Part shown: piece after piece, positions 1 to 50,860 of the stretch
Layout: each line of letters begins with the position of its first letter
How positions within the stretch are numbered: the stretch's first letter is position 1
DNA from: Candidatus Tayloriibacteriota bacterium
GTDB taxonomy: Bacteria > Patescibacteriota > Minisyncoccia > Phycocordibacterales > HO2-43-120
Direction: 5' to 3'
Length of the DNA stretch: 64,000 bases
Assembly (NCBI GenBank): GCA_039934295.1
Contig: JBDTMN010000003.1
Coordinates: 10,625-74,624 of the forward strand
Translations under genes and position numbers: made by a program
The notes under the pieces: generated by a model
What the model was told of the DNA's origin: nothing
The model's database searches: none
The model's input: only the letters and a program-made list of their open reading frames with translations

Positions 1-818
1 CAATATCTGACAGCCGTCTCTCGGTCTGTTGAATGGTCATTACCAATAATTATTGCCGTTGTGTCTGGATGATATTTAAGAGCCGTAGCCAGTACTGCGG
101 TACTATCTATTCCGCCACTCAAATAAACGGCAACGGGTAAATCGGTTTGCGTTCTGATTTTTATCGAATGGTCAAAAAGTTCTCGAATTTTATCAACGGC
201 GATTTTCTCTGTAATATTTTCATCAATTTTTGCGTCAATCGAGAAATATTTTTTCAATTTTCCATTGTCCATCAAATGTCCGGCCGGAAAAAGATTGGCA
301 GTTTTTAGTTCCTCAAAGTCCACCAGCGATTTTATTTCAGAGGCAAAATAATAATTTTCGTTTCCATCTATTGCCCAATATAAAGGTTTCACTCCGAACG
401 AGTCTCGGGCGGCAAAGAATGTTCCATCTTTGCTGTCATAAATAAAAAACGCAAACATCCCGCTTATTTTCTCTAAAAGTTTTTCTTTCCATTCCGCGTA
501 GCCGTTCACTAGCACCTCAGTATCTGAATCAGTAGAGAACGAATAGCCTATTTCTTTTAGCTCTTTTTGTAAATCCTTAAAGTTATAAATCTCTCCATTA
601 AAAACAATGTGGTATCTACCGTCCGACGAAGAAATCGGTTGTTTCCCTTTTTCCCGATCAACAATAGCGAGGCGATTCATTCCGAGAACGCAGACTCCAA
701 AATCCGCACTTTCGTTGAAGTATTTTTGTTCTCCGCGATGAGCAATTGGCGCCAGCATTGCTTTAAGCCGACCACTCTCCTGCTTTTTTTTTCCGATGAT
801 TGCTGCTATTCCGCACAT
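1..818 (-). CDS. asnB: Asparagine synthase (glutamine-hydrolysing), N-terminal part; gene continues beyond the window start
   Basis: Minus-strand translation from ATG at 818 begins MCGIAAIIGKK (N-terminal Cys glutaminase) and contains the SGGIDSTAV PP-loop motif. Not in the ORF track because it runs off the edge. Confidence 0.8.
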   Translation of the reverse strand, partial: MCGIAAIIGKKKQESGRLKAMLAPIAHRGEQKYFNESADFGVCVLGMNRLAIVDREKGKQPISSSDGRYHIVFNGEIYNFKDLQKELKEIGYSFSTDSDTEVLVNGYAEWKEKLLEKISGMFAFFIYDSKDGTFFAARDSFGVKPLYWAIDGNENYYFASEIKSLVDFEELKTANLFPAGHLMDNGKLKKYFSIDAKIDENITEKIAVDKIRELFDHSIKIRTQTDLPVAVYLSGGIDSTAVLATALKYHPDTTAIIIGNDHSTDRETAVRY

Positions 819-846
819 AAATGATTTCAGTTGGTTTTTATTGCTG

Positions 847-881
847 TGGGCGTGGAGAGACTCGAACTCTCAAGAAAAGTG
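847..881 (-). pseudogene. tRNA 3' fragment (T-arm GAGAG-TTCGAGT-CTCTC plus acceptor strand CACGCCC-A) with no cognate 5' half adjacent
   Basis: Revcomp of 847-871 folds as a canonical T-arm plus a 7-nt acceptor 3' strand. That strand is exactly complementary to GGGCGTG at 1675-1681. Confidence 0.5.
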
Positions 882-882
882 T

Positions 883-965
883 GTCGGAGGGGGGACTTGA
901 ACCCCCATGAGCGTGAGCTCACAGCGCCCTGAACGCTGCGTGTCTGCCAATTTCACCACTCCGAC
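883..965 (-). tRNA. tRNA-Leu(CAG), type II with long variable arm
   Basis: Revcomp GTCGGAG..CTCCGACA has a perfect 7-bp acceptor and a D-arm with GG. Anticodon stem CAGCG/CGCTG, loop TTCAGGG (anticodon CAG), variable stem-loop GAGC-TCAC-GCTC, T-arm GGGGG-TTCAAGT-CCCCC. Confidence 0.85.
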
Positions 966-1617
966 GAAACTTTATCTCCTCCAAAGACCTCATTATTTTA
1001 AGTCTTTTTCGTTCTAAACATACTACTGCTTTACGATAATACATCTTTTTTGCGATAATTTCTGCCTCTCGTTTGGAAAACTTAAGTTGAACATTTGTAG
1101 AATCTCGTTTTCTACTTATGAAGCCGTGCAAACTTGCATATGTATTCAATCGCCCTCTTAACCAGCAAAAATATTTTTCGCTGCCAGAGGCAAATGAAAT
1201 ATAGAAGCGAAAGCTATCTTTCCATACTGGATCATAATATGAGTAACTACATCCGTCCCCATCAAAATAGCCACGGAGGAAATCAAAAAAATATTTCTTA
1301 GGAACCAGTATAGCAGATAAAATCTTCGACTTTGCGGGCATCAGACCAATTTTCAAAAGAAATCTATAGAATAAGACGTCACTAAATTGTATATAATAGG
1401 ACAAGTTTCCTTCCCCAGACAATTTTTTGCAAATCTTCATTTTAATTCCAAGACAGGCATTGAAAGCTGAGAGCAGTTCCTTGTCTTTAGAAGTTAGTAC
1501 AATATGCCTGCCATCTTTTGAAAGACATCCATCAGAAACTATTAACCCTATCGCGTAGGCAAAATTAGAGGACCATTTGATAAAAACACTACCTTTAGGT
1601 TTTGGTCCACTTTTCAT
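919..1617 (-). CDS. LAGLIDADG-family homing endonuclease (two-motif type); C-terminal ~15 codons overlap the tRNA-Leu and are probably not real
   Basis: Two LAGLIDADG-type motifs: AIGLIVSDGCL and LRGYFDGDGC, with the right spacing for a single-chain LAGLIDADG enzyme. Confidence 0.75.
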   Translation of the reverse strand: MKSGPKPKGSVFIKWSSNFAYAIGLIVSDGCLSKDGRHIVLTSKDKELLSAFNACLGIKMKICKKLSGEGNLSYYIQFSDVLFYRFLLKIGLMPAKSKILSAILVPKKYFFDFLRGYFDGDGCSYSYYDPVWKDSFRFYISFASGSEKYFCWLRGRLNTYASLHGFISRKRDSTNVQLKFSKREAEIIAKKMYYRKAVVCLERKRLKIMRSLEEIKFRRSGEIGRHAAFRAL

Positions 1618-1643
1618 TCATTCAATTATAGCAACTAAATAAC

Positions 1644-1681
1644 ACTGAAACAATAGCGTATACCAATTCCGCCACACGCCC
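1644..1681 (-). pseudogene. tRNA-Leu-like 5' half (acceptor GGGCGTG, D-arm GGCGGAATTGGTATACGC, loop TTCAG..) with a degenerate anticodon stem, truncated by the downstream HEG insertion
   Basis: Revcomp GGGCGTGTGGCGGAATTGGTATACGC.. closely resembles the bacterial tRNA-Leu 5' half. Its acceptor pairs with the fragment at 848-854. Confidence 0.45.
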
Positions 1682-1690
1682 AAAATATTT

Positions 1691-50258: not shown

Positions 50259-50682
50259 TGATATATAGTAGCAGAAAATAGTATAGCGTGTAACCTGCCT
50301 ACCCCGTTGAGCCTCTCCACTACTGGGTAACTCGTACCATCAGAAAAGATGTATAGAAGCTAAAAAATCCTCCATGAGGATTTTTTAGTAGGGTCATTTG
50401 AAAGTATTGCCCTAGTCAAAAACTAGGTGGATGCCCTCAATTGCACTAATCAGATGGCGTTTTACGGTCTTCATCATGGCGCAACAATTTGAGCTTCCTA
50501 AATATGCTTTAATCTAGATAATACTCCAAATAACCCTGCTCTCATTATAGACTCGTAAGAATGGAATGCAAGCTAAAATAGGTGTAAGGTTTTAGGTTTA
50601 AGGTGTAAGTAAATAAAATGAAAAAAATTAAAAATCCCAAGGGTAACCCTTGGGATTTTTAACCTAAAACCTAATTAATTCA

Positions 50683-50860
50683 TGCCGACATTAAGAAATG
50701 TCGGCATCTCCCAATCTTGCCCACGAGTTCTCGAGTGGGTGCAAGATTGAGGATCCCGAGCGTGGCGAGGGACAGAAATTGTGCGCCGACATTAAGAAAT
50801 GTCGGCATCCTCAATTTTTCATCCACGAATTAAAAATTCGTGGGAAAAATTGGGACCTAC
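50683..50860. repeat. Structured intergenic region: two identical hairpins gccgacatt-aagaa-atgtcggc flanking an imperfect 16-bp hairpin, then catccacgaatt-aaaa-attcgtggg
   Basis: Inverted repeats at 50683-50706 and 50786-50808; central caatcttgcccacgag/ctcgagtgggtgcaagattg. Confidence 0.5.

Follow-up and report, generated by a model that had tools for sequence, protein, structure and literature searches.

In this study, we analysed a window of 64,000 nt (the whole stretch of DNA examined here) from Candidatus Tayloriibacteriota bacterium (contig JBDTMN010000003.1, positions 10,625 to 74,624), which contains one tRNA-Leu(CAG) gene in two separated pieces, with a LAGLIDADG homing endonuclease gene (HEG) and a second, intact tRNA-Leu(CAG) between them. 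Our reading, to which we give a probability of about 70%, is that the resident tRNA-Leu(CAG), here called type R, was invaded at its anticodon loop by a free-standing homing cassette made up of the endonuclease gene and a differently sequenced replacement tRNA, here called type I. A preliminary description, made from the letters of this stretch alone, had left two possibilities: either a HEG cassette had entered a tRNA-Leu gene and supplied a replacement tRNA of its own, or a tandem tRNA locus had been rearranged. The first is supported by intact counterparts of the outer gene in other genomes (loci L038 and L023), by the distinct sequence type of the inner tRNA and by the recurrence of the same arrangement in relatives; the second is not needed, and that recurrence disfavours it. 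Full-text literature searches returned no description of bacterial LAGLIDADG genes paired with tRNA halves, and the cassette family is apparently large and undescribed.

Anatomy of the locus

Coordinates without a locus name are positions in the window, and all elements of the cassette are read on the minus strand. Read directly in that direction, the order is 5' tRNA-Leu half, TATAAT box, LAGLIDADG open reading frame (ORF), intact tRNA-Leu(CAG) and 3' remnant, as follows.

1645..1681, minus strand: 5' relic of the resident (type R) tRNA-Leu(CAG), by direct reading
1618..1644, minus strand: spacer of 27 nt from the 5' relic to the HEG start, by direct reading
1630-1625, minus strand: TATAAT box, 7 nt before the ATG of the HEG, by direct reading
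919..1617, minus strand: two-motif LAGLIDADG homing endonuclease gene, 232 aa and stop codon, by Pfam, Protein Data Bank (PDB) and AF2/Foldseek
881..965, minus strand: intact inner replacement (type I) tRNA-Leu(CAG), by ARAGORN (881-965) and Rfam (882-965)
847..880, minus strand: 3' relic of the resident tRNA-Leu(CAG), 34 nt, by direct reading and alignment to L038

The 5' relic (GGGCGTG-TG-GCG-GAATTGGTATA-CGC-T-ATTGT-TTCAG, 1681-1645) is found where the preliminary description had seen a tRNA 5' half running from GGGCGTG to TTCAG on the minus strand. It comprises the acceptor 5' strand GGGCGTG, U8-G9, a Leu-type class II D-arm (GCG-GAATTGGTATA-CGC), and the anticodon-stem 5' strand and loop through the anticodon CAG (TTCAG, with G36 at 1645). 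The 3' remnant had been given as 847-871; a T-arm and acceptor strand are present there, but the remnant is 34 nt long (880-847) instead of 25 and abuts the inner tRNA with a gap of 0 nt. It consists of the end of the variable arm (ACTTTTCTT, 880-872), the T-arm GAGAG-TTCGAGT-CTCTC (871-855), the acceptor 3' strand CACGCCC (854-848) and the discriminator A (847).

The cassette between the relics measures 764 bp (1644-881), and its ends hold 27 non-coding nucleotides 5' of the ORF and 0 between the inner tRNA and the 3' relic. The last 47 nt of the HEG (965-919) overlap the 5' part of the inner tRNA: tRNA positions 1-47 (window 919-965) encode the final 15 codons and the stop codon of the endonuclease, in a frame that is constant across the Leu(CAG) clade described below. 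This overlap looks like a by-product of compaction. If HEG and inner tRNA are co-transcribed, RNase P processing of the tRNA would strip the mRNA of its stop codon.

The TATAAT box suggests a putative promoter for a leaderless or nearly leaderless HEG mRNA, and a TATAAT/TATACT-like box lies 6-8 nt ahead of the start codon in most relatives. The site at 1630-1625 was not listed by a generic promoter scan because no good -35 element is present.

The outer pieces as two ends of one tRNA gene

The outer acceptor strands (1681-1675 and 854-848) form 7 of 7 possible pairs, all Watson-Crick, in agreement with the exact complementarity noted in the preliminary description. As both positions are fixed by the D-arm and the T-arm, the probability of such pairing by chance is 4^-7 (about 6e-5).

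Among the tRNA genes of the loci that we fetched, uninterrupted tRNA-Leu(CAG) genes without an adjoining HEG occur at L038:692-776 and L023:175-257. L038 belongs to another genome of the Candidate Phyla Radiation (CPR), whose members are ultra-small bacteria, and its tRNA-Leu(CAG) has the sequence GGGCATGTGGCGGAATTGGTATACGCGTATGCTTCAGGAGCATATGAGAGAAATCTCTTGAGAGTTCGAGTCTCTCCACGCCCAC. In the MAFFT alignment, the 5' relic is identical to columns 1-37 of L038 at 32 of 37 positions, and the five mismatches are at position 5 and within positions 26-31, the latter adjoining the HEG. The 3' relic (up to window 880) is identical to columns 51-84 at 31 of 34 positions, including all of the last 25 nt (25/25). 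Compared with the intact gene, the outer tRNA lacks about 13 nt (positions ~37-47), namely position 37/38, the strand that closes the anticodon stem on its 3' side, and the first part, or most, of the variable arm. Because an intact counterpart exists elsewhere (L038, L023), the outer pieces can be recognised as the two ends of one ordinary gene that is short of about 13 nt. Thus uninterrupted tRNA-Leu(CAG) genes of type R, the counterpart implied by the invasion that the preliminary description proposed, do exist elsewhere.

Gene finders do not recover the outer tRNA by themselves. It was not called by ARAGORN on 601-2000 under intron and pseudogene settings, and neither outer half scored on its own with Rfam in E-value mode on 600-2000, so that the unity of the two pieces is visible in their alignment to a single gene of L038 and not in a program call. 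A direct join of the two outer pieces gives no tRNA in ARAGORN. A hybrid of outer positions 1-26, inner 27-48 and outer 49-73 is called as tRNA-Leu(CAG), but 169 of 200 hybrids with shuffled acceptors are still called, so this control does not discriminate.

Two sequence types of tRNA-Leu(CAG)

The complete tRNA-Leu(CAG) reported inside the locus in the preliminary description is called by ARAGORN at 881-965 and scores 48.4 bits with the Rfam tRNA model (gathering score 29). Its stems are GTCGGAG/CTCCGAC (acceptor), GTG/CAC (D-stem) and CAGCG/CGCTG (anticodon stem), followed by a long variable arm and the T-arm GGGGG-TTCAAGT-CCCCC, and CCA is not encoded. In the ARAGORN structure it has the features of a class II tRNA-Leu, that is, a 7-bp acceptor, a 3-bp D-stem, a long D-loop, a long variable arm and the anticodon CAG.

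The inner type I and outer type R genes differ in the acceptor (GTCGGAG versus GGGCGTG), the D-stem (GTG/CAC versus GCG/CGC) and also the anticodon stem, and the T-arm and acceptor segments of the inner tRNA and the 3' relic are identical at only about 15 of 25 positions. The same division is seen among the relatives, for which we compiled 33 HEG-linked tRNA-Leu(CAG) genes (30 on the same strand as the HEG, 3 inverted). The acceptor starts with G(C/T)(C/T)G in 32 of these 33 (the exception is L014), a GGGC acceptor is absent from 32 of 33, and the D-stem is mostly GTG/CAC. The loci also contain three tRNA-Leu(CAG) genes that are free of a HEG, all with the D-stem GCG/CGC and two with the acceptor GGGCATG. 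The relics have the acceptor GGGCNNG, and they share GCG/CGC and the D-loop GGAATTGGTA(T/G)A with all three HEG-free genes. The tRNA behind the HEG is therefore of a different allele class from the displaced one, as a replacement element predicts.

The endonuclease

The ORF at 919-1617, previously read as a two-motif LAGLIDADG gene, matches Pfam LAGLIDADG_3 (E=1.3e-10, 41.9 bits against a cut-off of 22.5). Motif 1 ends in ...AYAIGLIVSDG (D29-G30) and motif 2 in ...LRGYFDGDG (D119-G120-D121-G122); these residues, among them the acidic ones at the ends of the motifs, do not vary in 33 homologues. Only one sequence match was found in the PDB, 2DCH (E=2.9e-7, identity about 21%). The AF2 model (pLDDT 87.2, pTM 0.84) has two alpha-beta-beta-alpha-beta-beta-alpha halves, a pseudo-dimeric fold. 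The best Foldseek match is again 2dch (I-Tsp061I, E=3e-12), followed by intein endonucleases, I-AniI, I-DmoI and I-SceI, all with probability 1.00. Residues 220-232, the tail encoded within the tRNA, have pLDDT below 50 and are predicted to be disordered. No zinc-finger or Hint domain was found in the protein by Pfam or in the AF2 model. Judging from the conserved motifs and the predicted fold, the product looks like an active, free-standing LAGLIDADG endonuclease with retained catalytic residues.

Homologous cassettes in other genomes

A word-indexed protein search returned 1,882 clusters of the HEG family at 90% identity, and an exhaustive search of 50%-identity representatives gave 6,101 at E<=1e-3, 900 at <=1e-10 and 76 at <=1e-30, from which we take the family to comprise at least 900 clusters at 50% identity. 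Most hosts belong to CPR lineages of the Parcubacteria type; Omnitrophota and others account for some. Loci were collected in two sets, by scanning the homologue alignment against species genomes of the Genome Taxonomy Database (80 loci) and by look-ups of exact proteins. In both sets a complete tRNA is nearly always found downstream of the HEG, on the same strand and within about 100 nt.

In a neighbour-joining tree of 95 distinct HEG proteins, the clades match the identity of the first tRNA that follows the HEG in the same orientation. Leu(CAG) is nested in Leu(GAG), followed by Leu(TAG), Leu(TAA) and Leu(CAA), with a Phe(GAA) subclade and a distant Asp(GTC) clade. Proteins of the Leu(CAG) clade are 53-72% identical to that of the window. 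HEG homologues are thus nearly always tRNA-adjacent, and adjacency is accompanied by a correspondence between HEG clade and tRNA identity. The family appears to have switched tRNA targets repeatedly. Two HEGs occur together in only 2 of about 130 loci, where they adjoin different tRNAs. Paralogous pairs were noted at L031:2501-4074, L063:1273-3058 and L046/L047, either with one copy at Leu(GAG) and a second beyond tRNA-Val(TAC), or with tRNA-Val(GAC) following one copy and Leu(TAA) the other.

Moreover, a remnant of the 5' half of the cognate tRNA, ending just past the anticodon, precedes the HEG in the Leu(CAG) loci, in many Leu(GAG) loci and in several Asp loci. The relic reads AATTGGTATACGCTA-N5-YTCAG in the CAG clade (ending in ...TCAG), AATTGGTAGACGCTATTACCTTGAG in the GAG clade (ending in ...CTTGAG) and GGTTAGAGTAATGTCCTGTCA in several loci of the Asp clade (ending in ...CCTGTCA). 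As the relics stop right after the anticodon, the insertion point can be placed in the anticodon loop at position 36/37 to 37/38. The relic core adjoining the HEG is strongly conserved, and the distal acceptor part is decayed in most loci. This pattern fits selection for recombination competence, or could reflect endonuclease binding or regulation.

We took an unbiased census of the D-arm word GGTA[TG]ACGCT on both strands of 83 non-redundant loci found via the protein (410 kb). All but 2 of its 23 occurrences lie just upstream of a HEG start (21 of 23); the other 2 are in intact tRNA-Leu genes, and none is elsewhere. A metagenome scan with TTGGTATACGCTANNNNNYTCAG matched 33 contigs, with about 24 matches before a HEG and 0 in an intact tRNA. 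This pattern is one nucleotide longer than the spacing of a real tRNA and therefore unable to find an intact gene, so the scan shows only that this class of relic is HEG-specific. The correctly spaced relic pattern had no match in viral contigs. Local alignment of the 5' half of the inner tRNA with its own upstream region gave p<=0.005 in 14 of 71 loci and a weak p=0.15 in the window; such alignments are weak because the relics are short and of the other sequence type.

Some copies appear to be stages in the life cycle of a homing element. At L099:1705-1931 and L104:123-349, degenerate copies keep the relic and the tRNA-Leu(CAG), with the HEG cut down to its last ~50 codons. In L091 (reoriented, ~80-640), an IS200/IS605-like transposase ORF (…GGEFWTKGYYINTVG…) with flanking palindromes sits between the relic and promoter box on one side and the HEG on the other.

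The Asp clade and group I introns

In five loci of the Asp clade, ARAGORN calls no tRNA after the HEG, and a group I intron follows in each instead. Their positions, from Rfam, are as follows.

L071:3148-3392, group I intron after the HEG (E ~1e-8)
L076:3166-3384, group I intron after the HEG (at gathering score)
L078:3266-3456, group I intron after the HEG (E ~1e-8)
L082:3173-3403, group I intron after the HEG (E ~1e-8)
L085:3279-3474, group I intron after the HEG (E ~1e-8)

In L076, the tRNA-Asp(GTC) is split after the GT of the anticodon (35/36), and the relic before the HEG keeps the uninterrupted CTGTCA. Position 35/36 is the reported insertion site of Patescibacteria tRNA-Asp introns, which are said mostly to lack endonuclease genes (PMC13011429). 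An Asp-clade HEG upstream of an intron-split tRNA-Asp may be a case of "collaborative homing", with the intron shielding the occupied tRNA. The arrangement bears on how endonucleases and group I introns come together.

Proposed mechanism and points that weigh against it

On the reading preferred here, a cassette of promoter-like box, HEG and type I tRNA would have entered the resident gene in its anticodon loop, directly after the anticodon on the 3' side, and taken the place of about 13 nt. Positions 1-36 on one side, and the end of the variable arm with the T-arm and acceptor on the other, would remain as flanking relics. We infer that the endonuclease cuts an unoccupied type R tRNA-Leu(CAG) in or near the anticodon stem-loop, with L038:692-776 as an example of a candidate target. 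The break would then be repaired from the occupied copy, with the displaced pieces serving as short homology arms that could be used in any genome context, and the element may still be mobile. The essential function would be handed to the co-travelling type I tRNA, presumably not cleaved itself. A whole tRNA would be carried because the acceptor and anticodon stems pair across the two halves, and a half-swap between diverged alleles would usually break the tRNA; as a consequence, both ends of the old gene remain as relics, as in the window. So read, the copy in the window has the most complete configuration, with a left arm of 37 nt and a right arm of 34 nt that match the unoccupied L038 nearly perfectly.

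Several observations weigh against this model or restrict its scope. Most relics of the CAG and GAG clades have one extra nucleotide between D-stem and anticodon (CGC-TA-N5, not CGC-N-N5), whereas the spacing in the window relic is normal. Since this extra nucleotide is shared, the proximal relic is inherited with the element and not captured afresh. Its conservation then requires selection, which we can only hypothesise. An intact orphan T-arm after the inner tRNA is present in only 2 of 80 non-redundant loci (this genome and L011), so two-armed homing is not the general mode; decayed orphan T-arms are found in L097, L091, L110 and L015.

Rearranged copies also count on this side. In L018 (851-1602), L096 and L103, relic and HEG lie on the strand opposite to the tRNA-Leu(CAG), within a Val-Leu-Arg tRNA cluster, and the layout points to local inversion of the cassette or of ~85 bp. 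In L013 the Arg neighbour is the one found at these inverted loci, yet the order is the usual same-strand one. An inverted copy of the 3' end of the outer tRNA (GTGGGTGCGGGGAGACTCGA...) lies upstream of the 5' relic in L009, L011 and L097/L106 (at ~2420-2450 in L009; at ~215-245 in L011, which has ~1030-1060 past the inner tRNA as well). In L009, L011 and L097, an inverted repeat of 16-20 bp thereby brackets the unit of relic, HEG and tRNA, with a direct copy after the inner tRNA, and this repeat exceeds what acceptor-stem complementarity explains.

Finally, an occupied/unoccupied polymorphism was not found at this locus, and the nearest relatives of the flanking genes are not syntenic. The nearest HEG homologue in a different genome is only 72% identical, and hence no recent transfer is documented. 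On one side of the cassette, a gene at 2251-1691 encodes a membrane protein of 186 aa whose C-terminus is Ada-like; asnB (818 leftwards) is on the other. The exact matches of the 186-aa protein are from the same genome, and its best relatives reach no more than 58% identity. Upstream of the asnB genes with the most similar products (81, 70 and 68% identity) lies an HTH gene, with neither tRNA nor HEG there. Taylorbacteria loci with S41-L9-L27 synteny carry a tRNA-Val(CAC) at that position, on the other strand.

Apart from the question of an empty site, the closest relatives of asnB (window 1-818, minus strand; 68-81% identity) lie in other gene neighbourhoods (L123-L129), and further matches, 44-45% identical, are annotated as Micrarchaeota (DPANN archaea), which hints that asnB may have moved horizontally. 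Elsewhere in the window, ARAGORN reported a "tRNA-???" with a 2-nt anticodon at 50641-50731 (minus strand), where Rfam finds no tRNA. We rejected it as a false positive, as it is a terminator-like hairpin (AAAAATCCCAAGGG...CCCTTGGGATTTTT, then Ts) between converging ORFs.

Alternative explanations

The alternative that survives best, although we hold it to be unlikely, is a domesticated or immobile relic. Here the LAGLIDADG protein would be a host DNA-binding or regulatory factor, as WhiA is, the 5' remnant an operator or promoter element of a HEG-tRNA unit, and the whole inherited vertically. The relic core (TTGGTATACGCTA...TCAG) is in fact conserved far beyond neutral expectation between HEGs that are 53-72% identical, and it sits at a promoter-like box; WhiA is among the Foldseek matches, the ORF is intact in very many reduced genomes, and the lack of a documented recent transfer suits this view too. 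A mere DNA binder, however, would not be expected to keep the acidic residues ending both motifs invariant in 33 homologues. Degenerate and IS-disrupted copies occur, and the specificity clades switch tRNAs as selfish endonucleases do. Furthermore, the distance from relic to -10-like box falls into two classes (~5 and ~14 nt). We considered the relic as a -35 element and rejected it, since this distance is not constant and the promoter scan does not list the site.

A local rearrangement is quite improbable. It would require that deletion or illegitimate recombination had jumbled a tandem pair of tRNA-Leu genes, with an unrelated free-standing HEG lying in the gap by chance. Clusters of tRNA genes are frequent in these genomes, and the relatives do show inversions and inverted duplications of tRNA ends. 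Chance does not predict that HEG clades track tRNA identity, nor that the order of relic, HEG and cognate tRNA recurs in dozens of unrelated contexts with the anticodon of the relic being that of the downstream tRNA.

Very little speaks for a large intron (group I, group II or bulge-helix-bulge) that is excised from the RNA to give a functional outer tRNA. The insertion occupies the place of bacterial tRNA introns, the anticodon loop (PMC13011429), group I introns abound in Patescibacteria, and some Asp-clade relatives have one in the downstream tRNA. Against this, Rfam gives no intron-family match in 600-2000 at E<=10 and no Intron_gpI in the whole window at gathering score, while the same search does detect group I introns in the tRNA-Asp genes of relatives. 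The verdict of the preliminary description that a group I core has no room thus holds, with just 27 non-coding nucleotides ahead of the ORF and no gap at all from the inner tRNA to the 3' relic. Even after excision, the outer tRNA would have only the 5' strand of its anticodon stem and little of its variable arm (joined directly, the pieces do not make a tRNA), and the relics decay in relatives. With exon sequence and ribozyme both missing, we exclude an intron.

An attachment-site scar, left by an integrase-type island or prophage that integrated into a tRNA gene and duplicated part of it, is hardly credible: partial tRNA copies by intact tRNA genes are its usual signature, but no integrase or recombinase ORF lies between or beside the pieces (the flanks are asnB and the small membrane protein), the pieces are the 5' half and a 3' portion of a tRNA of another sequence and do not repeat a single 3' end directly, the two 3' segments differ in sequence and lie next to each other, and the whole insert is only 764 bp.

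A possible wider class of tRNA-targeting elements

Homing elements are usually described as introns, inteins or free-standing genes of phages, and to our knowledge those that replace part of a gene are so far known from one yeast gene only. We regard it as an even bet that CPR and some other uncultivated bacteria harbour a large, undescribed class of tRNA-targeting, "replacement-type" homing elements, a prokaryotic counterpart of the WHO elements of yeasts. In such a class, a free-standing LAGLIDADG endonuclease would cut one particular tRNA gene in its anticodon region, a substitute tRNA would travel with it, the displaced halves would be portable arms, and the occupied locus would be guarded by a diverged tRNA (Leu) or by an intron-split anticodon (part of Asp). 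If the class is real, an element could move between genomes that share nothing but the tRNA, and the intron-split Asp arrangement would tie free-standing endonucleases to the tRNA introns of Patescibacteria.

If widespread, these elements would add a splicing-free way for selfish endonucleases to live in essential RNA genes, and would account for orphan tRNA halves and for LAGLIDADG genes annotated as "intein-containing" or hypothetical in CPR genomes. They would also point to horizontal replacement of tRNA isoacceptor genes in reduced genomes, carried along with an element. LAGLIDADG enzymes typically have targets of ~20 bp, within a span of 14-22 bp or longer, and a set of small natural enzymes with clades matched to 7 different tRNA genes would be material for studies of specificity switching.

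Comparison with known systems

Integrase islands and prophages resemble the cassette in that a tRNA gene is targeted, its function is kept by a substitute sequence and a partial copy is left. They employ a tyrosine or serine recombinase and att sites, duplicate an identical 3' end and extend over tens of kb, whereas the cassette would rely on a double-strand break and its repair, leaves a 5' half of a different sequence type and is 0.76 kb long.

Free-standing HEGs of phages include T4 SegB (in a tRNA gene region), SegF/SegG, the nickases of the T5 tRNA region, and F-CphI by the psbA intron. As in phage intronless homing, the HEG here is outside any intron or intein, and double-strand-break repair would carry neighbouring markers along with it. 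Links to tRNA gene clusters are known for SegB and the T5 enzymes, and the Asp clade resembles collaborative homing. The phage enzymes differ in being GIY-YIG or HNH, not LAGLIDADG, and in acting between co-infecting phage genomes via long flanking homology, and we know of no description of a displaced half-gene relic or a carried replacement tRNA with them.

The anticodon loop of bacterial tRNA genes is also the home of HEG-bearing group I introns, such as those of cyanobacterial tRNA-fMet (I-Ssp6803I), tRNA-Arg(CCU) with a LAGLIDADG gene and Patescibacteria tRNA-Asn with an HNH gene, and no LAGLIDADG genes were reported for the tRNA introns of Patescibacteria (PMC13011429). These introns share with the cassette the target region, the phylum and homing-type endonucleases. 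They restore the tRNA by RNA self-splicing, while the cassette has no ribozyme and a second tRNA gene substitutes.

In sequence and fold, the nearest solved relatives of the endonuclease are I-Tsp061I and I-DmoI (PDB 2DCH, 2VS7), which are monomeric, two-motif enzymes of ~200 aa like the HEG protein. Unlike this HEG, their genes lie within bulge-helix-bulge introns of archaeal rRNA genes, and their targets are rRNA genes.

The mode of action proposed here is closest to that of the WHO elements of Torulaspora and Lachancea yeasts (Coughlan et al. 2020, PMC7282813; Osborne et al. 2026 preprint, 10.64898/2026.08.13.744650). In Torulaspora, the gene for a LAGLIDADG-type endonuclease is accompanied by one half of FBA1 in a resistant form. 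These are nuclear elements of eukaryotes, with a protein-coding target (FBA1) and an intein-derived HO-family protein with a C-terminal zinc finger. The cassette encodes a compact 232-aa enzyme nearest to archaeal intron endonucleases, has a 5'-half relic (with a 3' part in the window) and supplies a whole tRNA. WHO-like tandem clusters of successive invaders were not found in ~130 loci, and as these clusters and the zinc-finger and Hint domains are lacking, the cassette works like a WHO element without being a member of the WHO family.

What the two have in common is a LAGLIDADG gene by an essential host gene, a carried replacement, no splicing-out, and a displaced part that is kept as a non-functional fragment; moreover, occupied and unoccupied alleles differ in the replaced part, and old copies decay. 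For WHO elements, the displaced host-gene fragment beside the endonuclease gene has been proposed as an essential recombination site for repair (PMC7282813). The same layout, a full-length gene by the HEG and a displaced fragment on the other side of the HEG, is found, in mirror image and for a tRNA gene, in the window and recurs in relatives, and the allele difference is found likewise, with type I differing from type R and unoccupied type R genes present in L038 and L023.

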